Below, piece by piece: positions 1,302-59,795 of a stretch of 64,000 nt of DNA. Location: contig SMXQ01000107.1 of NCBI GenBank assembly GCA_004356985.1, positions 13,501 through 77,500 on the forward strand, in the 5' to 3' direction. Each line of letters opens with the position of its first letter. Position 1 is the first letter of the stretch. The DNA comes from Alphaproteobacteria bacterium. GTDB lineage: Bacteria; Pseudomonadota; Alphaproteobacteria; SMXQ01. The notes under the pieces were generated by a model. The model was not told the origin of the DNA, made no database searches, and saw nothing but the letters and a program-made list of their open reading frames with translations. A program made the translations under genes and the position numbers.

Positions 1302-2483
1302 TCAGGTGAGGGCGGATACGAGTTCCTCCACCAGGTCATCGCGCTCCCAGGAGAACCCGCCGTCGGTGTCGGGCGCCCGTCCGAAATGGCCATAGGCCGC
1401 GGTGCGTGCATAGATCGGCTTGTCCAACCCCAAATGATCGCGAATGCCCCGCGGCGTGAGGTCCATGACCGCGCACAATGCGCCCGCCAATTTCTGTTCA
1501 TCGCAAGTAGCGGTGTCATAGGTATGGACGTAGACCGAAAGCGGCTTGGCCACGCCGATGGCATAGGAAATCTGAATCACGCAGCGCTCGGCAAGGCCCG
1601 CGGCAACCACGTTGCGGGCCAAATATCGCGCCGCGTAGGCCGCCGACCGGTCGACCTTGGAAGGGTCCTTTCCGGAAAACGCGCCGCCGCCATGGGGCGC
1701 CGAACCGCCATAGGTGTCGACGATGATCTTGCGCCCGGTCAGGCCGCAATCGCTGTCGGGACCGCCGCGCACGAAACGGCCGGTGGGATTGACGTAGAAT
1801 TCCTCCTCGGGGCACATCCAGCCGTCGGGCAGCACGTTTTCCACATGGGGCCGCACGATCTCGCGGACCTGCGCCTGGTCGAGACCTTCTTCGTGCTGGG
1901 TGGACACCACCACGGAAGCGGCCCGCACCGGCTTGCCATGGGAATAGAGAAGGGTGACTTGGCTCTTGGCATCGGGATAGAGGCCGGGCTCGGCGCCGGA
2001 ATGGCGGGCCTCGGCCAGGGAGCGCAGGATGGCGTGGGAGTAATGGATGGGCGCGGGCATCAACACATCGGTTTCACGACAGGCATAGCCGAACATGATG
2101 CCCTGATCGCCGGCGCCCTCGGACTTGTTGCCCGCCGCGTCGACCCCCATGGCGATGTCCTCGGATTGGTTATGGATCAGAACCTCCACCCGCGCAGTTT
2201 TCCAGTGGAACCCTTCTTGTTCGTAACCAATATCGCGCACGCATTGGCGGGCGATCCTTTCGAGCTCCTCGGCGTCCAGGATTTTAGGCCCGCGAACCTC
2301 TCCGGCCATGACCACGCGATTGGTTGTCACCAGGGTTTCCGCACCCACGCGGGACTGCGGGTCCAGGGTCATATAGGCATCGACGATGGCATCGGAGATA
2401 CGGTCGGCGACCTTATCGGGATGGCCTTCAGAAACCGATTCGCTGGTGAACAGGTAATCGCCTTGGGACACGGGCTCCTCCAT
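1302..2483 (-). CDS. metK: S-adenosylmethionine synthetase
   Basis: The 393-aa ORF begins ...[27 protein letters not shown] and carries [23 protein letters not shown], classic MetK motifs along the full length. Confidence 0.95.
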
Positions 2484-2624
2484 GGTGACTCAGAAAACCC
2501 GCGCGCCGAGCCGCGCTGCTGCCCGTGGAGCATTGGCCCCACCGACGCGCATCACTTCTTCTGGGCGGCTCTTGTTGCAACCTTTGGCGGTGCCGTCAAG
2601 GGGTTTCCCGCCGAGTTGATTGCC

Positions 2625-3077
2625 TCAGGCCCCGTCGGCCATGGAGCGTAACAATTCAAGCACCCGGCGGCGCTGCTTGGGATCGTTGATGCGATAATAA
2701 GCGCGGATCATCTCCGCGGTTTCGCGGCTGGCCATGGGGTCCGCTTCGAACTTCACCGAGGCATCGGCGAAGCCCCGCGCCTTGGCGCCGGCCGTGGCCA
2801 GCGCCCTTGGCATTTCCTCGAAAAAAAAGGCGATGGGCACGCTCAGAACCTTGCTCAACGTGAACAGCCGGCTGGCGCCGATGCGGTTGATCCCGCGTTC
2901 GTATTTCTGGATCTGTTGAAAGGTAAGCCCCACCGCCTTGCCCAGCTTCTCCTGGCTCATGCCCAGCAACATGCGTCTTTGCCGAACGCGGCTACCGACA
3001 TGGGCATCGATGGCGTTGGATCTTCCCTTGGTGGCGCGAGGGGGTCTGCGGGTCGATTTCGTTACGGCCTTCGCCAT
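2625..3077 (-). CDS. XRE-family helix-turn-helix transcriptional regulator
   Basis: The 150-aa ORF contains the segment [42 protein letters not shown], a Cro/C1-type HTH. An AT-rich promoter region lies upstream at 3078-3200. Confidence 0.7.
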
Positions 3078-3200
3078 GGCTATTCCTTTTTATTATGTGG
3101 CCGAATCGTCGGTTTACGGCTGCAATAATGGTAACTACGCTAATAAACTAATTATATGGGAATATGTCCCAAGACACAACAATGAGATGTACTACCGGCA

Positions 3201-4763
3201 TCATTTACCGTCCGCAGCGGTACGGCGGCGACCCAACCATAGGGCAAATAGTAATATAACACACGCCACGAGGGCGAAAATCCCATTGCCGAATCGGGCG
3301 AACGGCGTCGCTCGGCCGAGAGCCGCCGGAAGACGCCGCTGGATCACCCCGCGCCGGCCCAGGGGAAGCGCCTCGAGCACCCGGCCCCATGGATCGATCA
3401 CCGCCGAGATCCCGGTATTTGCCGCCCGCACCAGCGGCAAACCCTCTTCCACGGCGCGGAACCGCGCCGCCGCCAGGTGCTGATAAGGCCCGGCGGACCG
3501 CCCGAACCAGGCATCGTTGGTGAGATTCAGGAGCCACCGCGGGCGGGGGCCCGGCGCCACCACGGCGCCCGGGAAGATGGCCTCGTAACAGACCAGGGGC
3601 GAGAACCGCGGCAAGCCGGGAATATCCAGGCTGCGCGCGCCGGGGCCGGGGGTGAAGTCGATTCGCCCGGCGGTGATCTTGGTGACGGGAAGGAATCTGC
3701 GGGCAGGAACGTATTCACCGAAGGGTACCAGGTGATGCTTGTCATAGGTCGCAACGATGCCCTTGCGGGTCACGGCGACGACCGCGTTCCACAGCCGGCG
3801 CGGCCGCGTTCCGGGCGCCGTGGCCCGCACCGCGCCGGTGATCAACACGCCATCGGCGGGGACCGCCCGCTTGAGCGCCCGGACCAACGCCGGATTGCCG
3901 TCGAGGGTGAAGGGAACCGCGGTCTCCGGCCAAATCACCACGTCGGGCGCGGCGCCCCGGGGGCCCCGCGAAAGCCGCAGGTAGGTGGCGTAATGGCTTG
4001 GCGCCAGATCGCGGCGCCATTTCAAGCGCTGGTCGATATTGCCCTGGATGATTCTCAGCGTCACCTCGGTGACCGCCGCGTCCGGCGCCGAGCCCACCCG
4101 GACCAGGCCCGCCCCGCCGATCGCCGCGGCCAGCACCATGGCGACCCCCAAGGGCCGGGCGCGGGCCAGGCCCGTGGTGGCCGCCCCCAGGGTCGCCGGT
4201 GCCGCGGCGATGGCCACCACCACCAGGGAGAGACCATAGGCGCCGAACAATGCCGCGCCCTGGATGGCGGCGGCATCGAAGGCCAGCGAAGTCGCTATCA
4301 GGTTCCAGGGAAATCCGGTCAGAACCACGCCGCGCAACCATTCGGTGGCGGCCCAGGCGGTCGCCAGGACCAGCACCCGCGGCACGCCGGGCCGGGCCCG
4401 GCAAGCCGCCCAGCAGGCGAGGGCGGGATAGGCCGCGAAATAGAGCGACAAGCCCAATACGGCGAAGGGCGCCAGCCAACCGTAGGTGGCGGCATCGACC
4501 AACAGCGCATTGGCGACCCAATAGAGCCCGCCGACGAAATGCGCGAAGCCGAACCACCATCCCAGAACCAACGCCTTGCGCCCGGCGCGCGGCCCCCCGT
4601 CGCGCCCGTCGATCAGCCAGACCAGGCCGGTGAAGGACACGAACAACACCGGCACGGCATGGATGGGGGGGAGTGCCGCCACCGCCACCGCGCCAAGCCC
4701 GGCGGCGGCGGCCGACCGGCGCCAGCCGGATAGCGCGCCAAGGCGCCGGGCCAGTTCCCTCAT
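3201..4763 (-). CDS. lnt: apolipoprotein N-acyltransferase
   Basis: The 520-aa ORF has multi-pass TM N-terminus and a nitrilase-like C-terminus with the CYEAIFP motif. It is the last gene of a ybeZ-ybeY-ybeX-lnt type operon. Confidence 0.9.
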   Translation of the reverse strand: MRELARRLGALSGWRRSAAAAGLGAVAVAALPPIHAVPVLFVSFTGLVWLIDGRDGGPRAGRKALVLGWWFGFAHFVGGLYWVANALLVDAATYGWLAPFAVLGLSLYFAAYPALACWAACRARPGVPRVLVLATAWAATEWLRGVVLTGFPWNLIATSLAFDAAAIQGAALFGAYGLSLVVVAIAAAPATLGAATTGLARARPLGVAMVLAAAIGGAGLVRVGSAPDAAVTEVTLRIIQGNIDQRLKWRRDLAPSHYATYLRLSRGPRGAAPDVVIWPETAVPFTLDGNPALVRALKRAVPADGVLITGAVRATAPGTRPRRLWNAVVAVTRKGIVATYDKHHLVPFGEYVPARRFLPVTKITAGRIDFTPGPGARSLDIPGLPRFSPLVCYEAIFPGAVVAPGPRPRWLLNLTNDAWFGRSAGPYQHLAAARFRAVEEGLPLVRAANTGISAVIDPWGRVLEALPLGRRGVIQRRLPAALGRATPFARFGNGIFALVACVILLFALWLGRRRTAADGK

Positions 4764-10993: not shown

Positions 10994-11220
10994 GGCGTTT
11001 TCGCTTATCCAGCGATCTGGCAAGCGTCCTTATCAAGGTTGCTCCGCGCATTCCGGGCAATCATACTGAACAGTCCTGCCAACGGGAATAGCCGATGGCC
11101 ATCCCCGGTCAGAAAGATTGAACGCCTTCCAACGGCGCCGGTACCGCCTTTGAACCTTTCAACCGGGCCGGCGGCGCCTGTACGCTTGAGAAAATTCGGG
11201 TGGTCTTCCGCCTCTAGAGT

Positions 11221-11257
11221 ACTTCCGGGTTAAATTGAATCATTTGACCGGAAAGTG
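11221..11257. repeat. palindromic repeat unit (copy A): ACTTCCGGG-ttaaattgaatcatttga-CCGGAAAGT
   Basis: Hairpin-forming unit with 8-9-bp arms and a conserved loop. It abuts the mucR stop codon (11260-11262) and lies about 200 bp upstream of the fur-like gene. It is related to the copies at 29714, 29760, 29987, 44648 and 57807. Confidence 0.6.
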
Positions 11258-11259
11258 CT

Positions 11260-11673
11260 CTAACCCCTGCGCCTGGGCTTCCTGCCGAGGCCGATCTTTT
11301 TCGCCAGGTTGGAACGCTGGCGCGCGTAATTGGGTGCGACCATGGGATAGTTCGCCGGCAGGCCCCAGCGCTCGCGATATTCTCCGGGGGTCATGTTGTA
11401 GGAGGTTTTCAAGTGCCGCTTCAGCATCTTAAGTTTTCTACCATCCTCCAGACAGATGATATGATCGGGCGTTACCGACCGCTTGATGGGAACCGCCGGC
11501 TGGGGCCGGTCGGCCTGTCCCGAGGGGCCTTGGTCGATGGTCGTGAGCGTGCCGTACACTTGGCGGATCAGATCAGGAATATCTTGAATTGCCACCGGAT
11601 TATTGGCCAGGTGAGACGACACGATTTCGGTTGTCAGTTCGAGAAGGTCGTTTGTTTCTCTTGGATCCGCCAT
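11260..11673 (-). CDS. mucR: MucR/Ros-family zinc-finger transcriptional regulator
   Basis: The 137-aa ORF has the Ros/MucR C2H2-like region HIICLEDGRKLKMLKRHLKTSYNMTPGEYRERWGLPANYPMVAPNYA. Confidence 0.85.
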   Translation of the reverse strand: MADPRETNDLLELTTEIVSSHLANNPVAIQDIPDLIRQVYGTLTTIDQGPSGQADRPQPAVPIKRSVTPDHIICLEDGRKLKMLKRHLKTSYNMTPGEYRERWGLPANYPMVAPNYARQRSNLAKKIGLGRKPRRRG

Positions 11674-28004: not shown

Positions 28005-28859
28005 ATGCCCGATATCAATCTTTCCGGCCGCGCCATCATCGTCACCGGCGCAAGCCGCGGCATGGGCCGGGAAATGGCCGATGCGCTGCTGGCGGCGGGG
28101 GCCTCCGTCGCCGTGCTCAGCCCCGAGGCCGACGAGCTCGAAGCCACGGCGGCGGAGTTGGGCGCGGCCCATGGCCGTCATCGGGTCATCGCGCTGGTTT
28201 CCGACATTACCGACTACCACGGCTGCGCGCGCGGCGTCGCCGAGACCGTCGCCGCCTTCGGCGGCCTCGACGGCCTGGTCAACCATGCCGGCATCGGCCC
28301 TCTCCAGGTCGCGCCCACGGTTTCCGAAAGCGAGCACGTGCCTTTCTGGATCGCCGATCCGGCCCGTTGGGCGCGGTTGATCGAGGTCAACATGATCGGC
28401 ACCTATTTCATGGCCCGGGCGGCGGCCCCGGTGATGATCCAACGCGGCTGGGGGCGGATCGTCAACGTCACCACCTCGCTGCCCAATTACGGCCGGGGCC
28501 ACTGGAGCCCCTATGGCTGTTCCAAGGCGGGGGTCGAATCCGAGACCCTGATCTTCGCCCAGGACCTCGAGGGCACGGGCGTGACCTGCAACGCGTTTTT
28601 CCCGGGCGGCGCGGTGCGGACCAAATTCGTGCCGCAAAATATGCATTCCAGCCCACGGCTGCTGGATGCCGACATCATGCGCAAGCCCATCGTCTGGCTG
28701 ATGTCGGATCACTCCGGCAAGCATAACGGCGAACGGTTCAACGCGCGCTATTGGGACGCCGCCGCCGACGCGGGCGAGGCCGCGGCCCAGGCCGTGACCG
28801 TCCCCGCCTACCGGGCGCCGCCGCCCCGGGCCAACCTCGGCAAGGAAGAGGGCGCATGA
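28005..28859 (+). CDS. SDR-family oxidoreductase (paralog 1)
   Basis: IVTGASRGMGREMA gives the Rossmann motif. The N-terminal part of the supplied 483-aa ORF is out of frame, and the real start is ATG 28005. Confidence 0.8.
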   Translation: MPDINLSGRAIIVTGASRGMGREMADALLAAGASVAVLSPEADELEATAAELGAAHGRHRVIALVSDITDYHGCARGVAETVAAFGGLDGLVNHAGIGPLQVAPTVSESEHVPFWIADPARWARLIEVNMIGTYFMARAAAPVMIQRGWGRIVNVTTSLPNYGRGHWSPYGCSKAGVESETLIFAQDLEGTGVTCNAFFPGGAVRTKFVPQNMHSSPRLLDADIMRKPIVWLMSDHSGKHNGERFNARYWDAAADAGEAAAQAVTVPAYRAPPPRANLGKEEGA

Positions 28860-29695
28860 GCGATATCCATCTCGATGACCGGGTCGCCATCGTCACCGGG
28901 GGCAGCCGGGGCATGGGCCGCGAGATGGGCGAAGCCATCATCGAGGCCGGCGGCCGGGCGGCGCTGCTGACGCCCGAAGCCGAAGAGCTCAAGGAAACCG
29001 TCGACGAGATCGCGTCAAACCACGGCGCCGACAAGGTGATGGCGCTGCCTTACGACATCCTTGATTACGGCCAATGCGAACGCGCCGTCGCTGAGACCCT
29101 GGAGTACTTCGGAGCCCTGCACGGGGTCGTCAACAACGCGGCGCTGGGCCAGCTCAACGTCATCGCGCCGGGCGCCGACGACACCAACTGCAAGTTCTTC
29201 GAGGCCGACCCCGAACGTTGGGCCCAGGTGATCCGCGTCAACGTGGTCGGCACCTACCACATGTGCCGCGCCGCGGTGGGTCACCTGAAGGACCAGGGCT
29301 GGGGCCGGCTGGTCAATGTCACCACCTCCATCGGCACCATGCAGCGCAGCGGCAACAGCCCCTATGGTCCGTCCAAGGGCGCCATCGAATCCGAAACCCT
29401 GGTGTTCGCCGCCGACCTGGTGGGCTACGGCGTGACCTGCAATTCCCTGATCCCGGGCGGCGCGGCGCGGACCAAGTTCGTGCCCGAGGCCTATTACAAG
29501 ACCCGCGATCTGGTGGAACCTTCGATCATGCGCGTGCCCATCGTCTGGCTGTTATCCGATCTCTCCGACGAGCACACCGGCGGGCGCTACGTGGCCAACC
29601 GATGGGATCACGGCGCTAACGACCCCAGTCTGGCGGCCGAGGCGGCGAAGGAACCGCCGGTGTTCAACCCGCCGCCGGAAGGGCGGCTCGACTGA
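28856..29695 (+). CDS. SDR-family oxidoreductase (paralog 2)
   Basis: IVTGGSRGMGREMG is clearly paralogous to the upstream SDR, and the sequence is collinear throughout. The start overlaps the upstream stop in an ATGA arrangement. Confidence 0.8.
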   Translation: MSDIHLDDRVAIVTGGSRGMGREMGEAIIEAGGRAALLTPEAEELKETVDEIASNHGADKVMALPYDILDYGQCERAVAETLEYFGALHGVVNNAALGQLNVIAPGADDTNCKFFEADPERWAQVIRVNVVGTYHMCRAAVGHLKDQGWGRLVNVTTSIGTMQRSGNSPYGPSKGAIESETLVFAADLVGYGVTCNSLIPGGAARTKFVPEAYYKTRDLVEPSIMRVPIVWLLSDLSDEHTGGRYVANRWDHGANDPSLAAEAAKEPPVFNPPPEGRLD

Positions 29696-29713
29696 CCCGC
29701 CGCATGGCCGGGG

Positions 29714-29754
29714 CACCTTCCGGCCAAGTGGTTCAAATGGGCCGGAAGGTGACC
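29714..29754. repeat. palindromic repeat unit (copy B1): ACCTTCCGGCC-aagtggttcaaatg-GGCCGGAAGGT
   Basis: Perfect 11-bp inverted arms, 19 bp after the SDR stop. The loop is the reverse orientation of the family core. Confidence 0.6.
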
Positions 29755-29759
29755 TAGGG

Positions 29760-30017
29760 CACTTCCGGGCCAAATTGAACCATTTGACCGGGATGATTTT
29801 GCCCCAAGGTTAGACGCGTGTCGCATGGCGATGCGGGGCATCGGCAAAGATACGCAACGACGCCTTGGGGGAAAAGCACCCGACCTACGGTGGGGCTCAT
29901 GGGCTTCCAGGGTGCGTTGCGGCTCTTGCCCGATGCACCGCATCGCGCTTCGAACCGCGCCTACCCTGGAAGCCCATGAGCCCCATCAAATTGATTCAAT
30001 TTGGCCCGGAAGTGACC
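29760..30017. mobile_element. MITE-like composite element (~258 bp) with terminal inverted repeats of the palindromic repeat family and nested internal inverted repeats
   Basis: Left end CACTTCCGGGCCAAATTGAACCATTTGACCGGG (29760-29793) and right end CAAATTGATTCAATTTGGCCCGGAAGTGACC (29987-30017) are inverted copies. Inside is a perfect 22-bp inverted repeat, TGGGGCTCATGGGCTTCCAGGG at 29891-29912 and CCCTGGAAGCCCATGAGCCCCA at 29965-29986, plus a further imperfect inverted pair (29828-29847 and 29925-29945). There is no ORF. The right end abuts the mutS stop codon. Confidence 0.45.
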
Positions 30018-32743
30018 TAGTCCCCGGCCGAGACGATGCCCTTGAGCCGGTAGAGGAGTTCCAAGGCCTGGCGCGGGGTAAGCTCGTCGGGATTGACCTC
30101 ATCAAAGGCCTGTTCCAGTGCGCTCGGCCCCCGCCGCGTCATCGCCGCCGCGAACAGCGGCAGGTCGTCGGCCAGGCGGGAGACCGCGTCGGCCTTTTCG
30201 CCCTGTTCGATGGCGCAGAGCACCTCTTCCGCCCGGTCGAGCGCCGCCTTGGGGAGACCCGCTAGGCGGGCCACGTGAATGCCGTAAGAGCGATCCGCCG
30301 TGCCCGGGCCCACGGTATGGAGGAACACCACCTCTCCCTTCCATTCCTTGACCCCCATGGCGTGATTGGACAGCTCGTGAAGGCGTGCGGAAAGCTGGGT
30401 CAATTCGTGGTAATGGGTGGCAAATAGGCCGCGGCAGGCGTTGACCTCGTGCAGGTGTTCGATGATCGCCCAGGCGAGCGACAGCCCGTCGAAGGTAGCG
30501 GTGCCGCGGCCGATTTCGTCGAGGATCACCAGCGCGCGCGGCCCCGCCTGATGGAGGATGGTGGCGGTTTCCACCATTTCCACCATGAAGGTGGAGCGGC
30601 CCCGGGCGAGGTCGTCGGCGGCACCGACGCGGCTGAAGAGACGGTCGACCACGCCGATATGGGCGGCCGCGGCGGGCACGAAGCAGCCGACCTGGGCGAG
30701 GATGGCGATCAGGGCGTTCTGGCGCAGGAAGGTGGACTTGCCGGCCATGTTGGGCCCGGTCACCAGCCACAACCGGCTGGCTTGGCGGCCGGCCTCGGTT
30801 TCCTCTTGGTCATGGGCCGCGCCGGGTTCGGCCGCACCAAGGCCTTGGTCGGTGAGGTCGCAATCGTTGGCCATGAAAGGGGCCGCGCCGGCCCGGCGCA
30901 GGACCTGTTCCACCACCGGGTGCCGGCCGCCCTTGACGCGAAAGGCGAGGCTGGCGTCGACCTGCGGCCGGCAATAGGCGCCTTGGCGCGCCAGCGCGGC
31001 AAAACCCGCCGCCACGTCGAGCCAGGCCAGGGCGCGGGCGGTCCTGGCGATGGGCTCGGCATTGTCCTTCACCGCGCCCGCCAACCGCTCGAATATTTCC
31101 AGCTCGAGGGCCAGCGCCCGGTCCGACGAGCGGGCGATGGCGGTTTCCAGGTCCACCAGTTCCTCGGTGTTGAAACGGACCACGGAAGCCAGGGTTTGGC
31201 GGTGGTGGAAGAAATGCTCCTCGCCGTCGGGACCTTTCGCGCCGGTCATGCCGTCGGCCTGGCTGGCGCGCGTTTCGATGAAATAGCCGAGCACGTTGTT
31301 ATGGCGGATGCGCAGGTTTTTGATCCCCGAACACGACCGGTAGCGGCTTTCCAGATTGGCGATCAGCCGCCGGCTTTCATCGCGAAGCGCGCGGGTTTCA
31401 TCGAGCGCGGCATCGAACCCGGGCGCGACCAACCCGCCGTCCCGGGTGAGCAGCGGTAAATCCGCCGCCAGTGCCTTGTCCAAGAGGCCGATGAGCGCGC
31501 CATGATCACCGAGGTCTGCGATCCATTGGGCGACCAGCGGCGGCGGCGGCGCGAGCGGGCGCGCGCCATCCTTGGCGAGGGCCGCTTTGAGGTCCTGGGC
31601 GCCGCGCAAGCCATCGCCGACAGCGGCGAGGTCGCGGGGACCGCCGCGGCCCAGGCTGACCCGTGCGAGGGCGCGTTCCACGTCGGGTAGCCCGTCCAGC
31701 GCCTTGGCGACGGCGCCGCGCGGACCGGGTGTGCCGTCTTCGTCGCCGACGAACCAGGCCACGGCGTCGAGCCGGCGGTTGATGAGCTCCGCGTCGGTCA
31801 AGGGGGCGGCCAGCAGCGCCGTCACCAGGCGCCCGCCGGCGCCGGTCAAGGTGCGGTCGATGACCTCGAGCAGGCTGCCGCCGCGGCCGCCGCCGATGGC
31901 TTGTGTCAGTTCCAGGTTGCGCCGCGTCTGGGGGTCGATTTCCATGGCCTCGCCTTGGTCGATGCGCCGGGGCGGGTCGATGCGCGGCAGGCTCCCTTTC
32001 TGGGTCAATTCGACATAGTTCACCAGGGCCCCGGCGGCGGCCAGCTCGGGGCGGGTGAAGCGGCCAAAGCCGTCCAGCGACGCCACCGCGAACAGCTTTT
32101 CCAGGCGGCGCGCGCCATTGCCGGAATCGAACAGGCTTGCGGGCTGGGCGGTGACGGTGGTGCCGGCCTCCTCGCCAAGCTGTTCGAGGATGGCCGCCAG
32201 TTCGGGCTTGGCATTGAGGCGATCGGACAGCAGCAGTTCACCCGGCTCCACCCGGGCGAGGACCGATGGAAGCCGCGCCAGCGTCACCGGCTGGGCGAAA
32301 AATTCGCCCGTGGAAATGTCGAGCCAGGCGAGCCCCAGCGCGCCTTGGGCTTCGGCCAGGGCGGCGAGAAAATTATTGCGCTTGGCGTCAAGCAGCGCTT
32401 CCTCGGTCAACGTGCCGGGGGTGATCAGCCGCACCACCTCCCGGGCGACCACCGCCTTGGCGCCCCGCTTCTTGGCCTCCGCCGGGTCCTCGATCTGGTC
32501 GCAGACGGCGACCTTGAAACCTTTTCTGATGAGGCGCGCGAGATAGCTATCGGCGGAATGGACCGGCACCCCGCACATGGGGATGTCCTCGCCCAGGTGC
32601 TTTCCGCGATGGGTCAGGGCGATGTCCAGCGCCCGCGCGGCGGCGAAGGCGTCATCGAAGAAGAGCTCGTAAAAATCGCCCATGCGGTAGAACAGGAGGC
32701 CGTCGGGATGCGCCGCCTTGATGCGCAGGTACTGGGCCATCAT
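30017..32743 (-). CDS. mutS: DNA mismatch repair protein MutS
   Basis: [32 protein letters not shown] matches the MutS N-terminus, and a Walker [10 protein letters not shown] follows. The start is uncertain, since the ORF extends to 32905. Confidence 0.9.
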
Positions 32744-42311: not shown

Positions 42312-42848
42312 ATGAAACCGGTCCATTGGGCGGCCCTCACGGCGGCGCTTCTCGGCGCCTCTTGCGCGGGGCCGGCGGCGGAAACGGGGTCCGGGGCACC
42401 GATGGCGTCCGCCGCCAGCCACCAGGAGACCCCGGCCCAGGCAACCGCCATCGCCAAGACCACCGAACCACGGAACCTGCCGGGGGCCCGGGCGGCGGCG
42501 CCGTCCCCTCCCCGGATCACATCGGCGGCCCTCATGGGCCTCGCCGACAACGCCTTGGCGCGGCTTTTGGGCGCGCCGGGGTTCAAGCGCATCGACGATC
42601 CCGCGGCGCTCTGGCAGTACCGGGGGGCAGGCTGTATTCTCGACGTCTTCCTGTACGCCGACGGGCCGGTTTATCGGGTGGCCCATATAGAATTTCGGCG
42701 GGCCGGGGCCGGCGCGGTGCCCATGGAAGGCAGGGATGGCGAGAAATGCTTTTCCGGCCTCTTTCCCGGGGTCGAGGGGCCCGGGGTCGAGGGGCCCGGG
42801 GTCGAGGGGTCCGGGGTCAAGGGGCCCGGGGCCAAGGGGAAGGGATGA
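42312..42848 (+). CDS. hypothetical lipoprotein with C-terminal GVEGP pentapeptide tandem repeats
   Basis: From ATG 42312 the protein begins MKPVHWAALTAALLGASCAG (lipobox LGASC) and ends GVEGPGVEGPGVEGSGVKGPGAKGKG. I could not recognise any other domain. Confidence 0.5.
   Translation: MKPVHWAALTAALLGASCAGPAAETGSGAPMASAASHQETPAQATAIAKTTEPRNLPGARAAAPSPPRITSAALMGLADNALARLLGAPGFKRIDDPAALWQYRGAGCILDVFLYADGPVYRVAHIEFRRAGAGAVPMEGRDGEKCFSGLFPGVEGPGVEGPGVEGSGVKGPGAKGKG
42766..42840. repeat. five tandem 15-bp repeats (CCGGGGTCGAGGGGC) encoding GVEGP units
   Basis: The units are 42766-42780, 42781-42795, 42796-42810, 42811-42825 and 42826-42840, with progressive degeneration toward the 3' end. Confidence 0.8.
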
Positions 42849-43986: not shown

Positions 43987-44633
43987 TTAGACGGTGGTCT
44001 TGCCCTTGAAGGCGCAAAGGTCATTGACCGCGCATTCGGTGCATTTGGGATTGCGCGCGACGCAGGTGTAGCGGCCGTGGAGGATGAGCCAGTGATGGGC
44101 ATGGTCCATCCATTTGGCGGCGATCACCTTCAGCAGCTTCTGCTCCACCGCCAAGGGCGTCTTTCCGGGGGCCAGCCCGGTGCGGTTGGAGACCCTGAAG
44201 ACATGGGTATCGACGGCCATGGTGGGCTCGCCGAAGGCGACGTTGAGCACCACATTGGCGGTCTTGCGCCCAACCCCGGGCAGGGCCTCGAGCGCCGCCC
44301 GGTCCCGGGGCACCTTGCCGCCATGGTCGTGGATCAATTGCCGCGAAAGGGCGATGATGTTCTTACCCTTGGTGTTGTAAAGGCCGATCGACTTGATATG
44401 GCCCTTGAGCCCGTCCAGCCCGAGGGCCACCATGGCTTTAGGCGTGCGCACCTTGGCGAACAGCGCCTTGGTCGCCTTGTTGACGCCGACATCGGTGGCC
44501 TGGGCGGACAGCACCACCGCCACCACCAAGGTATAGGGGTTGTGATAGGCGAGCTCGCTCTCGGGGGCGGGCGCCCGCGCTTTGAGGCGGCGGAAGAATT
44601 CGTCGACATCGGCTTTTTTCATGGCGCCGAACA
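43987..44633 (-). CDS. nth: endonuclease III
   Basis: The HhH-GPD fold is indicated by LVVAVVLSAQATD and LPGVGRKTANVVL, with a C-terminal 4Fe-4S Cys cluster C-x6-C-x2-C-x5-C. The start is taken at MFGAMKK. The longer ORF reads through an upstream repeat element. Confidence 0.9.
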
Positions 44634-44647
44634 TTAGAGCACAATGG

Positions 44648-44670
44648 GACCGATTTGAACCATTTGACGG
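44648..44670. repeat. repeat family copy D (loop-only): GACCGATTTGAACCATTTGACGG
   Basis: It lies 15-35 bp upstream of the nth start codon, in the nth-DMT divergent intergenic region. Confidence 0.5.
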
Positions 44671-44876
44671 CAAGCCGCCGCCGCCGCCGGGGGGCGCGGT
44701 CAAGGGTGCAATGCTTTGACAGGCGCCGAACCGCGCCCTATCAAGAACCATGATCGATGACCGGGAAAAGCCCGCGGCCCAAGCGTCCCTGGGCGGCGGC
44801 GCCAAAGCTTGGGACGGGAACGCCGGGCCCAGCAGCGCCGCGCGGCTGACCCGCGCCGCACGGGAAAACTGAGCCC

Positions 44877-45776
44877 GTGAGCTCCCGCGCGCTTCGCGAT
44901 TACGGGCTGGTGGTCACCCTGTCGCTGATCTGGGGCTCTTCGTTCCTGCTCATCAAGGTCGCCATCGACGAGGTCCCTCCGGTGACCATGGCGGCGGTCC
45001 GCGTGGTGATCGCCTTCGCCGTCCTTTATCTTCTGGTGCGCCTCGGCGGCCAATCCCTGGCGCCGCCCTGGGGGGCCGGCGGCCGGGTCCGATGGGGGCA
45101 TTACCTGGTGATCGGCATGCTCGGCAACGGCATCCCGTTCTCCCTGGTCTCTTGGGGCGAGATCGAGATCACGGCGGCGCTCGCCGCCATCCTGATCGGC
45201 GTGATGCCGGTTTTCACCGTGATTTTCGCCCATGGCTTCGGGGTGGAGCGGGTCACCGGGCCCGGGCGCCTGGCCGGCATCGCCGCCGGCTTGGCCGGCC
45301 TGGTGGTGCTGATGGGACCGGCGGCGTTGACCGAAATGGGCGGCGCCGCGCTCCATGAGCTGGCGCTTATCGGCGCCGCCGCCTGCTACGCCGCCACCGC
45401 CGTCTATGCACGCCGCCTGACCCTGCGCCTGGCCCTGGTGCCGCTGGCCGCCGGCTCCATGGCGGCCAGCGCCATGGTGATGGTGCCCGCCGCCCTGATC
45501 CTGGAAACGCCCTGGCGGCTTTCCCCCGGCCTTGGTGCCGGGAGCGCCGTCGCCGCCCTTGGCGTCATCGCCACCGGCTTCGCCTCGATCATCTATTTCC
45601 GGCTTCTGGCTTCCACCGGGCCGACCTTCGCCGCCACCATCAATTATCTGATCCCGGTGTTTGGCGCGGGGCTTTCCGTGGTGCTGTTAGGCGAGCAGGT
45701 GGGGCCGCGGGAAGTGCTGGCGCTGGTCCTTATCCTGAGCGGCATCGCCCTGGTCAGGAGCCCGCTCAGCCGTTGA
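44877..45776 (+). CDS. DMT-superfamily (EamA-like) transporter
   Basis: 10-TM EamA architecture with two duplicated halves. Confidence 0.75.
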   Translation: MSSRALRDYGLVVTLSLIWGSSFLLIKVAIDEVPPVTMAAVRVVIAFAVLYLLVRLGGQSLAPPWGAGGRVRWGHYLVIGMLGNGIPFSLVSWGEIEITAALAAILIGVMPVFTVIFAHGFGVERVTGPGRLAGIAAGLAGLVVLMGPAALTEMGGAALHELALIGAAACYAATAVYARRLTLRLALVPLAAGSMAASAMVMVPAALILETPWRLSPGLGAGSAVAALGVIATGFASIIYFRLLASTGPTFAATINYLIPVFGAGLSVVLLGEQVGPREVLALVLILSGIALVRSPLSR

Positions 45777-46578
45777 AGCCGAGCACGTCGGCCATGGAAT
45801 AGAGCCCGGCGGGCTTGTCCGCCGCCCACCGGGCGGCGCGCACCGCGCCGCGGGCGAAGATCTCCCGGCCGCCGGCCTTATGGGTGATCTCCAGGCGTTC
45901 GCCGGGGCCCGCGAACACCACGGAGTGTTCGCCCACCACGTCGCCGCCGCGCAAGGACGCGAAGCCGATGGCGCCGCGTTCCCGCGCCCCGGTGATGCCG
46001 TCGCGCCCGCGCTGGGCAACCGCGTCAAGCTCCACCCCGCGCCCCTTGGCCGCGGCCCGCCCCAGGGCCAGCGCCGTGCCCGACGGCGCGTCCACCTTGT
46101 GGCGGTGGTGCATTTCCACCACCTCGATATCGAAATCCGCGTCCAGCAGCCGGGCGGTCTGTTCGACCAGCGCCATGGCCAGGTTGATGCCGACCGAAAA
46201 ATTGGCCGCCTGGACCACGGCGACCGACCGGGCCGCCGCCTCGATCATCGCCTGCTGGTCCGCGTCCAACCCGGTGGTGCCGGTCACCAGAACGGTGACG
46301 TTGTCGGCCGCCAGCGCCCCGTGGGCGGCGGTCGCTTGGGGCGCGGTGAAGTCGAGCACGGCATCGGCGGCGGCGAACAGGGCGCCAGCATCCTCGGTGA
46401 CGGCGACGCCCAGGGCCGCGCCCCCGGCCAGGGTGCCGATATCGGCGCCGAGCGCCCCGTGGCCCGGCATTTCCGTCGCCCCCACCAGGTGGCAGCCCGC
46501 GGCCTCGCCCACCGCGCGGGTGAGCGCCAAGCCCATGCGGCCCGCCGCGCCGACGATTCCTATGGCGAGATCAGCCAT
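45766..46578 (-). CDS. dapB: 4-hydroxy-tetrahydrodipicolinate reductase
   Basis: IGIVGAAGRMG (NAD binding) and EVVEMHHRHKVDAPSGTA (DapB signature) are present. Confidence 0.9.
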   Translation of the reverse strand: MADLAIGIVGAAGRMGLALTRAVGEAAGCHLVGATEMPGHGALGADIGTLAGGAALGVAVTEDAGALFAAADAVLDFTAPQATAAHGALAADNVTVLVTGTTGLDADQQAMIEAAARSVAVVQAANFSVGINLAMALVEQTARLLDADFDIEVVEMHHRHKVDAPSGTALALGRAAAKGRGVELDAVAQRGRDGITGARERGAIGFASLRGGDVVGEHSVVFAGPGERLEITHKAGGREIFARGAVRAARWAADKPAGLYSMADVLGFNG

Positions 46579-46714
46579 GTCTTTCCCTGCCCCGTTGCCC
46601 CCGGTACCGTTCCGGGCGGGGATTTAACCACAGGGGGCCGAATTGGGGGAGAAATTTCCGTGCGCCCGGGTGGCGCCACGGGCGGCGATGAATTGGCGCC
46701 GCGCTCAGGGCGGG

Positions 46715-47875
46715 TCAGTCGCGGTCGGTTTCCGTCAGATCTTCCCAGGCTTCCTTGACCTGGGAAAACAGGCCTTCGGATTCGGGGTTGGTCTTGGCGG
46801 GTTTGGCCGCGCTCTCGAACTCTCTCAACAGCTCTTTCTGGCGCTTGGAGAGCTTCACCGGGGTTTCCACAATGGCGCGGATATACATATCGCCCCGCGC
46901 CGCCGAACGCATCACCGACATGCCCTTGCCCCGGAGCCGGAACTGGTGGCCCGACTGGGTCCCGTCGGGGATCGTCACCCGGGCCCGCCCGCCGTCGACC
47001 GTGGGCACTTCTATGGTGCCGCCCAGCGCCGCCTTGGTCATGGGGATCGGCACCCGCATGTAGATATTGGCGCCGTCACGCTGGAAATGGCGGTGGGACG
47101 CGATGGTGAGGAAGATGTAGAGATCCCCCGCCGGCGCGCCGCGCAGGCCGGCCTCGCCCTCGCCCGTAAGGCGGATGCGGGTGCCGTCCTCGACCCCGGC
47201 CGGAATGGTGACCGAGAGCGTCTTCTCCTTCTGCACCCGGCCGCTGCCGTGACAGTTGGTGCAGGGCTTGTCGATCACCTGGCCCTGGCCGTGGCAATTG
47301 GCGCAGGTTCTCTCGATGGTGAAGAAACCCTGCTGGGCGCGGACCCGGCCGCGGCCCTGGCAGGTGGGACAGGTGACCGGGTGCGAGCCCTTGGCGGCGC
47401 CGCTGCCGCCGCACCGGCCACACGCCGCGGCCGAGGGCACGCGGATGGTCGCCTGCTTGCCGGCGAAGGCCTCCTCCAAGCTGACTTCCATGTTGTAGCG
47501 GAGGTCGGAACCGCGGGTGTTCTGCCGCGCCGCGCCGCGGTTGCGCGCGCCGGTGAAATCGCCGAACATCTCGTCGAAGATATCGGCGAACCCGCCGCCG
47601 AAATTGAAACCGGAATCGCCCGGCCCGGCGCCCGGCCCGGCGCCGCTGCCGTCGAAGGCGGCATGGCCGAAGCGGTCATAGGCGGCGCGTTTTTCCTCGT
47701 CGCTGAGGACGTCGTAGGCTTCGCTGAGTTCCTTGAACTTCTGCTCCGCCGCCTTGTCGCCGGCGTTGCGGTCGGGATGGTACTTCATGGCAAGCTTACG
47801 GTAAGCCGACTTGATGTCGCCGGCCTTGGCGGACCGGTTCACATCAAGGGTTTCGTAAAAATCTTGCTTATCCAT
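46715..47875 (-). CDS. dnaJ: molecular chaperone DnaJ
   Basis: A J-domain with HPDRN, a G/F region, four CxxCxGxG zinc-finger repeats and a C-terminal domain. Confidence 0.95.
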
Positions 47876-47963
47876 GGGCTTCCCCGGCCGGCGGTGTCCC
47901 GAAGCTACCCCACCCGGGCCAGGCCAGGGCGGTGGCGGAACGGGGTTTCACGTCCAACCACCG

Positions 47964-49937
<1,974 letters not shown>

Positions 49938-50053
49938 GGTTCTTCACTATCCTTTCTCGAGCGGATGCCCCGGGCCCTGAACGGCGCCTCATGAGACCCT
50001 CGATGTCCTTGACCCCGGCCTTGACCAAGGCCCTGGGCGGAAAATCTCAAAGC

Positions 50054-50061
50054 TATATGGG
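50054..50061 (-). promoter_or_regulatory. putative sigma-32-type -10 element (CCCCATAT) upstream of dnaK
   Basis: The minus strand reads ...GGTTGTAGggccccgcccgcctCCCCATATA about 115 bp upstream of the dnaK ATG. The -10 matches the RpoH consensus CCCCATNT, but the -35 is weak. Confidence 0.3.
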
Positions 50062-50186
50062 GAGGCGGGCGGGGCCCTACAACCGTCCAACGGCCAAGTA
50101 TCGCCAAAAAAATTGGGGCGATTAAATTCCCGCGCCGGGCCCGGGGGGCCGTGAGCCGGGGCCGGGAATGGCGCCGCGCCCGGATT

Positions 50187-50960
50187 TCATGCCTTGGTAT
50201 CGACGTGCCCGTCGGCTTCGCCCGGGCCGTTATCGCCCCCGGCACCGTCTCCGGCCCGCGGCGCCGGTTTCACATCGGCCGCTTGATCGGGCATGGCGGC
50301 AAGGTCTTGGTTGGCGATGGGGGCCTGGATGGTCTCCGCTTTAGCCCCGCCCTTGGCGACCCCCACCATGGCCGGACGCAACAGCCGCCCGTTCAGCAGG
50401 TAGCCCGGCTGCACCACTTCGACCACGGTCCCCGGCGGCCGGGTCGGGTCGTCGATCTCGAACATGGCCTGGTGGCGGTCGTAATCGAAGGGCGCGCCCA
50501 AGGCATCCACCTTTTCGATGCCGTGGCGCTCCAGGGCGGCGATCAGTTCGCGCTCGGTCAGCTCCATCCCCGCCGCCAGGGCGGCCAGGGCCGGATTGCC
50601 GTCCCGGTCCTCGGCCGAGACGCTGTCGAGCCCGCGGCGCAGGTTGTCGAGCACCGTCAGGCAATCCCGGGCGAAGCCGGCGATGGCGAATTTGGCGGTG
50701 TCCTGGCGTTCCTTCTCGGCCCGGCGCCGGTAGTTTTGGAGCTCCGCCACGGCGCGCAGCAGTTGGTCGTTGAGCTCCGCGGCGCGCGCCTGGTGATCGG
50801 GCGGCGCGTCTTCAACCGCCGGGGCGGGCACATCCCCCGAACCGTCGCCCGAACCGTCGCCCGAACCGCCGGTGGCTGCGTCATCGGGCGATCCGGCCTC
50901 CTCTTCCGGGGCGTTCTTCGGTTCGCCGGCGGCGGGAACCTGGTCTTTTTCTTCGGTCAT
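50187..50960 (-). CDS. grpE: nucleotide exchange factor GrpE
   Basis: From MTEEKD the N-terminus is acidic with (GSGD)3 repeats, followed by a GrpE coiled-coil and beta domain (LLRAVAELQNYRRR, VGVAKGG). Confidence 0.85.
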   Translation of the reverse strand: MTEEKDQVPAAGEPKNAPEEEAGSPDDAATGGSGDGSGDGSGDVPAPAVEDAPPDHQARAAELNDQLLRAVAELQNYRRRAEKERQDTAKFAIAGFARDCLTVLDNLRRGLDSVSAEDRDGNPALAALAAGMELTERELIAALERHGIEKVDALGAPFDYDRHQAMFEIDDPTRPPGTVVEVVQPGYLLNGRLLRPAMVGVAKGGAKAETIQAPIANQDLAAMPDQAADVKPAPRAGDGAGGDNGPGEADGHVDTKA

Positions 50961-50970
50961 GGATGCTCCA

Positions 50971-52053
50971 TCAACGCAGGGATAAAGAGGCCCCCTCACC
51001 CCATAGGCGGCGCAACACCTTGGAGGTGTAATCCACCATGGGGACGATGCGGGCATAATTCATCCGGGTGGGACCGATGACGCCGATGGCGCCGACGATG
51101 TGTTCCGACGAATCGGCGAAGGGCGCCACCACCATGGAACACCCGGCATGGCTGAACAGCGCGTTGTCGGAGCCGATAAAAACCTGCATGCCGTCGGCCT
51201 TGAGGGTGAGTTCCAAAAGCTTGGCCAGGGTTTCCTTGGCCTCCAGGGCCTGGAACAACTCCCGCACCCGTTCCAGGTCTTCCAGCGCCGTGATGCTGCC
51301 CAGAAGATTGGCCTGGCCGCGGACGATCAGGTAGCCCTGCTGGAGATTGCCGCCCGACCAATGGGCCAGGCCGCGCTCCACCAATTGGCTGGCCAGGGTA
51401 TCCAATTGCGCGCGGTGGCTCTCGATTTCGGCCAGGATCTCGGACCTGGCCTCGGCGATGGTCCGCCCGGTCAGCCGCCGGGTCAGGTAATTGCCGGCCT
51501 CCACCAGGGCCGAGGCGAGAATGCCCAGCGGCATTTCGATGACCCGGTTTTCCACCACCCCGGTTTCCGACACCATCACCACCAGGGCCCGGCCGTCGCA
51601 GAGATTGACGAATTCGATATGCTTGAGCGGCGCTTCGTTCTTCGGCGCCAGCACGATGGAGGCGCAGTTGGACAGCCCCGATAGCGCCGCGGTGGCTTCG
51701 GCCAGCGCTTCTTCGACGCTCAGTCCGGTGCCCGCGCACATGGCTTCGATGTCCTCGCGGTCCTCGGTGCTGAGCCCGCCGAGCTCGAGGATGCCGTTGA
51801 CGAACAGCTTGAGCCCGGCCTCGGTGGGAAGACGCCCGGCCGAGGTGTGGGGCGCGAACAGCAATCCCGCCTCCTGCAGGTCGGCCATGACGTTGCGGAT
51901 GGTCGCCGGCGACAGGCCAAGGCCGGAGCTGCGCGCGAGCGTGCGCGAGCCGACCGCTTCGCCGGTCTCCACATAGCTCTCGACGATCAAGCGGAAGACC
52001 TCCCGCGAGCGGTCGTTGAGCTCGGTTACGGTGCCGAACTTGTCGTTGATCAT
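50971..52053 (-). CDS. hrcA: heat-inducible transcription repressor HrcA
   Basis: LNDRSREVFRLIVESYVETGEAVGSRTLA matches the HrcA N-terminal wHTH. The start is taken at MINDKFG, with a GGGAGAG RBS. The gene lies 10 bp upstream of grpE. Confidence 0.88.
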   Translation of the reverse strand: MINDKFGTVTELNDRSREVFRLIVESYVETGEAVGSRTLARSSGLGLSPATIRNVMADLQEAGLLFAPHTSAGRLPTEAGLKLFVNGILELGGLSTEDREDIEAMCAGTGLSVEEALAEATAALSGLSNCASIVLAPKNEAPLKHIEFVNLCDGRALVVMVSETGVVENRVIEMPLGILASALVEAGNYLTRRLTGRTIAEARSEILAEIESHRAQLDTLASQLVERGLAHWSGGNLQQGYLIVRGQANLLGSITALEDLERVRELFQALEAKETLAKLLELTLKADGMQVFIGSDNALFSHAGCSMVVAPFADSSEHIVGAIGVIGPTRMNYARIVPMVDYTSKVLRRLWGEGASLSLR

Positions 52054-57780: not shown

Positions 57781-57806
57781 CGGCGCCGCGCTGGGCGCAA
57801 ATTCCC

Positions 57807-57828
57807 GCCAATTTGAACCATTTCACCG
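57807..57828. repeat. repeat family copy E (loop-only): GCCAATTTGAACCATTTCACCG
   Basis: It lies 27 bp after the yraN stop and about 55 bp upstream of the BON-domain gene start. Confidence 0.5.
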
Positions 57829-57882
57829 TGCAGCGCCCTGGACAAGGGCCGAGAGTTGTGAATCAATGGGCCGGGGCCGACC

Positions 57883-58641: not shown

Positions 58642-58760
58642 CCCCCGCCGGGGCCAGGGCATATTCCGGGCAAAAGGTTTAATTCGGCCCCATAGTGCAC
58701 TAGGCTGGGCGGTCGAGACCGGTCAAACCGCACCGGTGAACCCACCGGGTACCCCTGCCC

Positions 58761-59726: not shown

Positions 59727-59762
59727 GGGCGCCGGAGTACGGGTTCCGCCATAATTTTTTAG

Positions 59763-59784
59763 CAATTTGGATTATTTGGATTGG
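59763..59784. repeat. degenerate copy F of the repeat family (CAATTTGGATTATTTGGATTGG)
   Basis: 14 of 20 positions match the core AATTTGAACCATTTGACCGG. It overlaps the MAPEG gene start region. Confidence 0.3.
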
Positions 59785-59795
59785 GGAGAACGCCC

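Follow-up and report, generated by a model that had tools for sequence, protein, structure and literature searches.

A family of short palindromes in alphaproteobacterial spacers: probable TA-inserting miniature inverted-repeat transposable elements

The palindromic repeats dispersed through a 64,000-nt stretch of an alphaproteobacterial genome (GenBank assembly GCA_004356985.1, contig SMXQ01000107.1, positions 13,501 to 77,500 of the forward strand; hereafter the window) are very probably small non-coding transposable elements of the miniature inverted-repeat kind (MITEs) that insert at the dinucleotide TA and duplicate it. They would thus be a selfish repeat family and not a shared gene-control site. 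Every testable feature of a MITE is present in this family except a partner insertion sequence (IS). A first-pass annotation, made from the window alone, had described the repeats as hairpins with a conserved loop and had offered two readings, a mobile repeat family or a regulatory motif.

The repeats are real. The core AATTTGAAYCATTTGACCGG occurs with at most three mismatches at five sites in the window, where 100 dinucleotide-preserving shuffles give an expectation of 0, and a 16-nt core has five matches against 0.34 expected. Thirty-six family members (alignment A1) were used to build a short-form covariance model, which recovers the sites labelled A to F and finds seven family sites in the window. 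Six of the seven sites in the first-pass annotation belong to one family, and an eighth site, copy H at 58655-58702, had been overlooked. Sites C and D, counted there separately, belong to a single 261-bp element as its two terminal inverted repeats. The sites are listed below with their model matches in brackets.

11215-11262, plus strand: copy A, short form; 44-bp element at 11217-11260 with TA flanks at 11215-16 and 11261-62 (match 11213-11264, 55 bits).
29709-29756, minus strand: copy B, short form; the element occupies 29711-29754 and lies 13 nt past the stop codon of a short-chain dehydrogenase gene (match 29707-29758, 57 bits).
29755-30019, plus strand: copies C and D, one long form; element at 29757-30017 (261 bp) with TA at 29755-56 and 30018-19 (left end C, match 29753-29808, 46 bits; D, partial match 29986-30004).
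44635-44672, plus strand: copy E, decayed and partial; TA followed by GAGCAC...ATTTGAACCATTTGAC, right arm lost (match 44650-44667, limited to the core).
57792-57840, plus strand: copy F, degenerate short form; element at about 57794-57838, between a UPF0102 gene and a BON-domain gene (match 57791-57840, 15 bits, E = 0.07).
58655-58702, minus strand: copy H, decayed short form; 13 nt past the BON gene stop codon and 58 nt before gshB (match 58653-58704, minus orientation, 24 bits, E = 1e-4).
59763-59784, no strand assigned: not a member; local 9-bp tandem duplication, ATTTGGATT twice, upstream of the MAPEG gene start.

The full unit at copy A, CTAGAGTACTTCCGGGTTAAATTGAATCATTTGACCGGAAAGTGCTCTAA at 11214-11263, is longer than the core first reported. 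The gene contexts given for the repeats hold: copy A adjoins the mucR stop codon and D that of mutS, E lies near nth, and F lies upstream of the BON gene. The fur start is about 190-240 nt from copy A and the mucR stop. The nth ATG is at 44622, 13 nt from the TA of copy E, which lies upstream of this Pfam-confirmed gene, and copy F is 43-75 nt upstream of the BON gene (gene calls and Pfam). The site at 59763-59784, formerly counted as a degenerate copy, was rejected as a family member: the covariance model does not recover it, and the ATTTGGATT duplication (window 59759-59790), which closely precedes the Shine-Dalgarno sequence and GTG start of the MAPEG gene, is absent from a sister species (L115), which lacks the extra 17 nt. 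The idea that copy E is a decayed long form was also rejected, its local alignment score of 39 being no significant gain over 31 +/- 6 for shuffled sequence.

The short form is a 44-bp palindrome, TA|GAGCAnnnnCCGG-C-CAAAT-TGAACC-ATTTG-A-CCGGnnnnTGCTC|TA. Members start TA|GAGCA, and complete ones end TGCTC|TA. Pairing comprises 13 outer base pairs and five inner ones (CAAAT with ATTTG) around the 6-nt loop TGAACC; the conserved loop of the first-pass annotation is therefore present as a conserved centre, most of which is paired, with only TGAACC a true loop. The family consensus for this centre is AATTGAACCATTTGA, and the ATTTGA-N3-ATTTGA direct repeat previously singled out proves to be a minority variant. 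Some copies have a fully symmetric centre, CCAAATTGA(A/T)TCAATTTGG, which reveals how the short form is composed: two terminal inverted repeats, each of about 22 nt, meet head to head and overlap. Because of this arrangement the short form resembles a single hairpin whose loop is conserved.

Long forms mostly measure 261-290 bp (range 164-347) and end in the same repeats as the short form. Copies 83-93% identical to the long form of the window occur at no fewer than eight loci of related metagenome-assembled genomes (MAGs). The ends of C-D, at 29754-29791 and 29985-30020, form an inverted repeat of 32 nt (I13 of the repeat finder; 91% complementary) enclosing about 200 bp, which contains internal hairpins at about 29797-29875 and 29890-29987; as single-stranded DNA the whole element folds at -103.5 kcal/mol (z = -14.3). 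No open reading frame (ORF) lies within any element, short (44 bp) or long (164-347 bp).

Left and right ends change together. The terminal inverted repeats match in all 20 aligned long forms (alignment A6) and co-vary between lineages, as in the alphaproteobacterium L058, where GAGTCCTTCCGACCCTAATTG is paired with CAATTAGGGTCGGAAAGACTC. Compensatory changes are present in the short-form arms as well: at four unconstrained positions, 129 of 164 cells are Watson-Crick pairs, compared with 103 +/- 4 after shuffling. Such co-variation would be seen if a single transposase has to recognize both ends, and fold-back copying in palindromes would give it too. End co-variation alone is no proof of a hairpin intermediate.

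Comparisons of occupied and empty sites show insertion with a 2-bp target duplication, and three independent comparisons resolve the junctions. In two related Rhodospirillales genomes the occupied locus (L012) reads gatgc-TA-[GAGCAG...263 bp...CTGCTC]-TG-gcacagg and the empty one (L069) gatgc-TA-gcacagg, with flanks 91.5% identical over 402 nt. Copy A, which reads GGGGT-TA-[44 bp]-TA-GAGGCGG in the window, is missing from two relatives whose MucR is 93% identical (L124 and L126); their empty site, GGGGT-TA-ACGGCGG, carries a TAA stop codon, and the 46-nt gap equals the 44-bp element plus 2. Against L115 and L116 the window has 47 nt more at copy F, CTGG-[45 bp]-CTGG where their empty site has a single CTGG. 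The element at copy F is flanked by TG on both sides. As TG is duplicated here instead of TA, the flanking repeat must be copied from the target and is no fixed part of the element; this supports duplication of the DDE type and argues against insertion of the Y1 type beside a fixed tetranucleotide.

The nested pair B and C-D tells the same story at lower resolution. The convergent stop codons of mutS and the dehydrogenase gene lie 9, 9 and 24 nt apart in three relatives (L120, L121 and L123, with MutS identities of 89%, 85% and 75% for the relatives compared) and 321 nt apart in the window, the entire difference consisting of B and the long form sharing one TA (29755-56). The other flank of B has degenerated to CG. 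A 312-nt insertion is clear at this site, the junction less so. The sites of A, B, C-D and F are empty in sister species whose flanking proteins are 85-93% identical, and the older copies E and H are each present in one relative, E in A5-S04_155 (L024, 7546-7593) and H in L115 (about 2710-2760), where it is better preserved. The central 14 nt of copy H lie in opposite orientations in the two genomes, AAAAGGTTTAATTC in the window and AAATTGAACCATTC in L115, with the arms in place, which suggests that a small inversion of the hairpin loop may have occurred. Within the species, no insertion polymorphism was seen: the window copies examined are identical in 9-10 same-species metagenome contigs (10 for copy A).

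The family extends well beyond the window. A species-representative genome collection (596 Gb) was scanned with the 19-mer AWTTGAAYCATTTGACCGG, loci being seen as 8-kb blocks around exact core matches. The scan found 95 loci, about 74 of which have the same arms and come without exception from uncultured Alphaproteobacteria; the other 21 or so are lone matches in unrelated phyla without arms, roughly as many as chance alone would give with a pattern of this length in so large a collection. Scanning metagenomes with the outer end GAGCANNNNCCGGCCAAATTGAAYCA brought in 65 more loci, so that the wider search proposed in the first-pass annotation yields a multi-copy family. The numbers of family blocks by genome are as follows.

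A5-S04_155: about 27 blocks.
OZ243926.1, a complete 4.56-Mb Rhodospirillales genome: 15 blocks.
Two further Rhodospirillales MAGs: 7 and 6 blocks.
MAG CBESNX01: 9 blocks.
An Afifella MAG: 5 blocks.
A Hyphomicrobiales MAG: 2 blocks.
Emcibacter, a Rhodospirillaceae MAG and another alphaproteobacterial MAG: 1 block each.

The genome collection does not contain the window itself; the nearest relative of the window there is A5-S04_155, at about 91.5% DNA identity over 44228-51374. The closest named relatives of its GshB are from Pelagibius/Kiloniellaceae (about 73% amino-acid identity). The species itself is common in metagenomes and includes GCA_022573795.1, as judged by exact-protein matches. In MAG CBESNX01 (L005, L019, L047, L054, L063, L067, L071, L075 and L092) many contigs end inside a long form; the repeat thus interrupts assembly from short reads, and its copy number in this MAG is probably high. 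No paper in the literature library searched contains the core or interior sequences, and the family appears to be undescribed as such and ordinary in kind.

Placement relative to genes was scored at 230 distinct element ends. TA flanks 172 of them (75%), as CTA in 121 and TTA in 42, and the rest are mostly single-transition variants (CA, TG). At 42 ends, TA and the first G of the element together form what is exactly a predicted stop codon, and in a separate count about 27 of 85 elements have such a stop codon. Ends face gene 3' ends (82) and 5' ends (94) about equally, without 5'/3' bias; the median distance is 0 nt to a facing 3' end and 65 nt to a facing gene start. Of the TA dinucleotides in these loci, 77% are coding, 2.7% belong to stop codons and 20% lie in spacers. 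By crude gene calls, an estimated one third or so of insertions hit stop codons, which make up 12% of tolerated TA sites; stop codons are thus hit about 2-3 times as often as their share of such sites would give.

Why copies should abut stop codons follows from the ends. With G as its first base and C as its last, an element that enters the TA of a stop codon, whether TAA or TAG, rebuilds TAG and leaves the protein unchanged. Both cases in the window conform: the minus-strand mucR stop (TAG, 11260-11262) is TA plus the terminal base of copy A, which turned the TAA of the relatives into TAG, and the minus-strand mutS stop (TAG, 30017-30019) is TA plus the terminal base of the C-D long form. TA is itself scarce in the window, which is 66.5% G+C, with 902 occurrences against 1791 expected, and CTAG more so, with 26 against 198.

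A mechanism consistent with these observations can be proposed. The element inserts at TA, mostly in a YTAR context, and duplicates it, and copies would be moved in trans by a TA-duplicating DDE transposase, as the target duplication and the ends suggest. IS427-type IS5 elements also duplicate TA, and the target is thus compatible with either candidate, IS630/Tc1-mariner or the IS427-type group of IS5, without fixing the family. Tc1/mariner-family transposases bind the inner part of the terminal repeat. The enzyme would likewise bind the inner terminal repeat here, the AAATTGAA part of the 22-nt end, which is what the first-pass annotation called the loop. That annotation reasoned that a conserved loop may be a protein-binding site; the same sequence is the expected transposase site, and its apparent conservation is partly ascertainment because decayed copies were found by core search. 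In a genome of this composition, TA is rare, CTAG more so, and both are found mainly in spacers and stop codons. The choice of target, with selection removing in-gene insertions, then leaves copies flush with stop codons and in short spacers, a placement that needs no function because the YTAR target is concentrated there and the terminal G rebuilds TAG, which makes such insertions neutral. Each insertion also makes two new CTAG sites and could draw further TA- or CTAG-targeting elements into nested clusters, which fits the nested B/C-D pair and the IS5-family elements described below.

Several points weigh against this explanation. In about 1.2 Mb of family-bearing loci, no autonomous element has matching ends and no transposase lies between family ends, nor was an IS630-family element or DDE_3 ORF with these ends found in the loci searched. 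The partner search covered inverted family ends 0.7-4 kb apart in the 95 + 65 loci. Three long end pairs (L145, L146 and L179) were rejected as an autonomous partner, since they enclose ordinary genes, and the copies at CBESNX01 contig ends were rejected as IS ends, being long-form MITEs. A collection of 72,556 plasmids has no match to the 50-nt consensus, and a viral contig collection has none. The gene calls behind the context statistics of the 230 ends came from a crude caller based on G+C at third codon positions, which makes those figures approximate. Finally, the arm compensation and the covarying interior of the long form exceed what a simple deletion derivative needs, and a single-stranded (hairpin) DNA form or an RNA form could matter.

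OZ243926.1 carries three different insertion sequences of the IS5 family (Pfam DDE_Tnp_1 together with either DUF772 or DUF4096), TA-flanked within CTAG.

L004 974-1835 and L014 943-1803: IS5-family element.
L069 611-1987 and L076 1114-2491: IS5-family element.
L069 about 2200-3250: IS5-family element.

Several sit exactly at the TA flank of a short element, and the CTAG sites made by the MITE seem to serve as landing pads. As partners they were rejected, because their ends (GGCTGTGGTGACA..., GCAGGCTGCTGAAAAA... and GGGTCTGTACTCAATTAG...) are unlike those of the family; they are neighbours at TA/CTAG sites held in common. At L014 and L015 a solo 16-nt end, TTTTTCAGCAGCCTGC, abuts the element.

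A further reading, which seems unlikely, concerns the long form: it might be more than an emptied transposon, namely a mobile structured nucleic acid of which one specific strand matters, either as RNA (a small or cis-acting RNA that travels with the element) or as single-stranded DNA for transposition. Twenty long forms were aligned, including those of Emcibacter (L007) and L058 and one copy from a Thalassospira marina megaplasmid. They have in common a three-way junction made of the terminal-repeat stem and two hairpins, both tipped by CGATGC-NNN-GCATCG, with 79 predicted pairs and 94.9% of cells paired. Double-sided changes occur at 47 pairs, compared with 20.6 +/- 2.4 after shuffling (none of 500 shuffles reaches 47) and 13-16 with partners slid. 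The fold is thus kept by compensatory changes in distant alphaproteobacterial lineages: the window's lineage, Rhodospirillales MAGs, Emcibacter and the T. marina copy. Counted on the aligned strand, G-U pairs stand to A-C mismatches as roughly 3:1, two fixed positions supplying much of the excess. Long forms are oriented without preference relative to neighbouring genes, at 12:12 for upstream and 12:16 for downstream genes. Transposition may require the fold, palindrome maintenance may produce it as a by-product, or it may serve an RNA function.

The T. marina copy (L133 1367-1615; plasmid pCSC3H3, NZ_CP024200.1 700043-700291) is a 249-bp TA-flanked element and the only copy in the plasmid collection. 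It has different terminal repeats (AGCCCTTTATTCTTAATCAGG...) around the same two-hairpin interior, including CTTGCCCGATACACCGCATCGCGC, so this interior module is common to MITEs with different ends.

It is improbable that the elements are domesticated at gene 3' ends, with the hairpin kept as a terminator or 3' mRNA stabilizer of the upstream gene. About one third of elements are flush with a stop codon, copies are fixed within the species, and intact copies fold strongly (z about -5 to -7; copy A as RNA at -17 to -23 kcal/mol, z -5.8 to -6.8; copy B at z about -5), and to this extent the earlier remark that the family seeds terminator-like hairpins is borne out. No T/U tract follows the hairpins, however, and a terminator scan does not call them; the TA target and terminal G already account for the stop-codon position, and as many ends face gene starts. 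Moreover, the older copies E, F and H have no stable fold and do no better than shuffles, which counts against purifying selection on structure. A terminator or stabilizer role is possible as a side effect of some copies and not as the reason for the family, and there is no sign of selection for termination. At gathering score, Rfam matched nothing in the whole window and a tRNA search found none there; relaxed Rfam thresholds over 29650-30080 gave only far-sub-threshold generic hairpins (miRNA precursors, VA RNA) and a few chance matches.

Just past copy A in the mucR direction (11170-11213, minus strand), the sequence GGCGGAAGACCACCCGAATTTTC forms a short hairpin followed by a T-run. It is kept in L124 and L126, which lack the element, and the simple terminator scan does not call it. 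It may be the original mucR terminator, with copy A placed between the stop codon and the native terminator.

Spread as repetitive extragenic palindromic (REP) or REPIN-like elements by a REP-associated tyrosine transposase (RAYT; IS200/IS605-type Y1) acting on a single-stranded hairpin is very improbable. Like REPs and REPINs, the elements are short, abundant, intergenic imperfect palindromes with compensatory arm changes, here between subfamilies, and one strand of the long form shows more G-T pairs than A-C mismatches. Typical REPs carry a head of the GTAG type, leave the target unduplicated, come in inverted doublets and are linked to a RAYT gene. None of the head, doublets or RAYT link is seen in this family: the ends are GAGC... 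with no conserved GTAG/GTGG head, and neither REP doublets nor a RAYT-like ORF lies beside copies in the loci inspected, a survey that included no dedicated genome-wide search. The family has a real target duplication, including the non-TA target at copy F, and a long form with 32-nt terminal inverted repeats. Of the REP/MITE reading in the first-pass annotation, the mobile, multi-copy, inverted-repeat and target-duplicating part thus stands and the REP-like part does not.

Least credible of all is a host regulatory motif in which the AT-rich centre would be bound by a response regulator or nucleoid protein co-regulating fur, nth, the BON (dolP-like) gene and the MAPEG gene: no other part of the detected copies is as well conserved as the centre (a pattern that is partly ascertainment), E and F keep it with decayed arms, and E is kept upstream of nth in two species, but A, B, C-D and F are lineage-specific insertions missing at orthologous sites of close relatives, the MAPEG site is no family member, half of the window copies are at gene 3' ends, the 230 ends have neither a 5' preference (82 facing 3' ends against 94 facing 5' ends) nor a fixed distance to start codons, and copy H has lost the centre. 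A CcrM site (GANTC) was rejected as the cause of the conserved centre, as it occurs in only 42 of the 230 ends (18%).

Reading the palindromes as TA-inserting MITEs has practical consequences for annotation. In uncultured alphaproteobacteria of a widespread group from the sea and from sediments, the family accounts for odd palindromes, broken assemblies and inflated spacers, the 321-nt spacer between mutS and its convergent neighbour, 9-24 nt in relatives, being one example. Caution is needed in that a shared AT-rich centre should not be read as a regulon motif. Because the ends restore TAG, an element can land safely in a stop codon even where TA is scarce, and TAA stops become TAG in the process. 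If any part of the family hides a new function, it would be the covarying interior of the long form.

Three other features were noted in passing. A 15-bp tandem repeat, CCCGGGGTCGAGGGG, occurs about five times at 42765-42839 (repeat finder). Adjacent paralogous short-chain dehydrogenase genes lie at 28353-28633 and 29204-29484, offset by 851 bp, with 74-78% DNA identity over stretches of 73 and 128 nt (D12 and D4 of the repeat finder), and the tandem pair is also present in relatives L120-L123. In one relative (L118/L119, 4451-5098) a HEPN_RiboL-PSP domain gene, not part of this gene order in the window, lies between the MAPEG and Mg-chelatase-like genes.

Among known systems, Bru-RS1 and Bru-RS2 of Brucella are alphaproteobacterial palindromic intergenic repeats and hot spots for IS711, an IS5-family element that targets YTAR/CTAG. 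This likeness is a lead only; IS5-family elements sit at CTAG flanks here too (OZ243926.1), and the Brucella repeats differ in their length of about 100 bp and unrelated sequence. The Correia/NEMIS elements of Neisseria duplicate TA. They resemble the family in being small (about 100-155 bp), with terminal inverted repeats and transcript hairpins, and are often co-transcribed (PMC2229807). They differ in their restriction to Neisseria, their sites for integration host factor and RNase III and their unrelated sequence, and stop-codon rebuilding is not reported for them.

The CerM/CcrM-associated intergenic repeats (CIR) of Caulobacter are, like this family, alphaproteobacterial intergenic stem-loops (PMC2229807). 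CIRs expose a conserved GANTC, found in only 18% of family ends, and are only partly MITE-like, whereas the MITE hallmarks are complete here apart from the partner IS. The RUP element of pneumococcus is a 107-bp MITE thought to be mobilized by IS630-Spn1, and it resembles the family in being non-coding, with terminal inverted repeats, TA insertion, many intergenic copies and stops in all frames (PMC2229807). Unlike the family, for which no partner was found in the loci searched, RUP has ends that match an IS630 element in the same genome; its host is Gram-positive, its sequence is unrelated, and the review names neither a 44-bp minimal form nor a conserved structured interior (PMC2229807). The family probably works as RUP and the Correia elements do.

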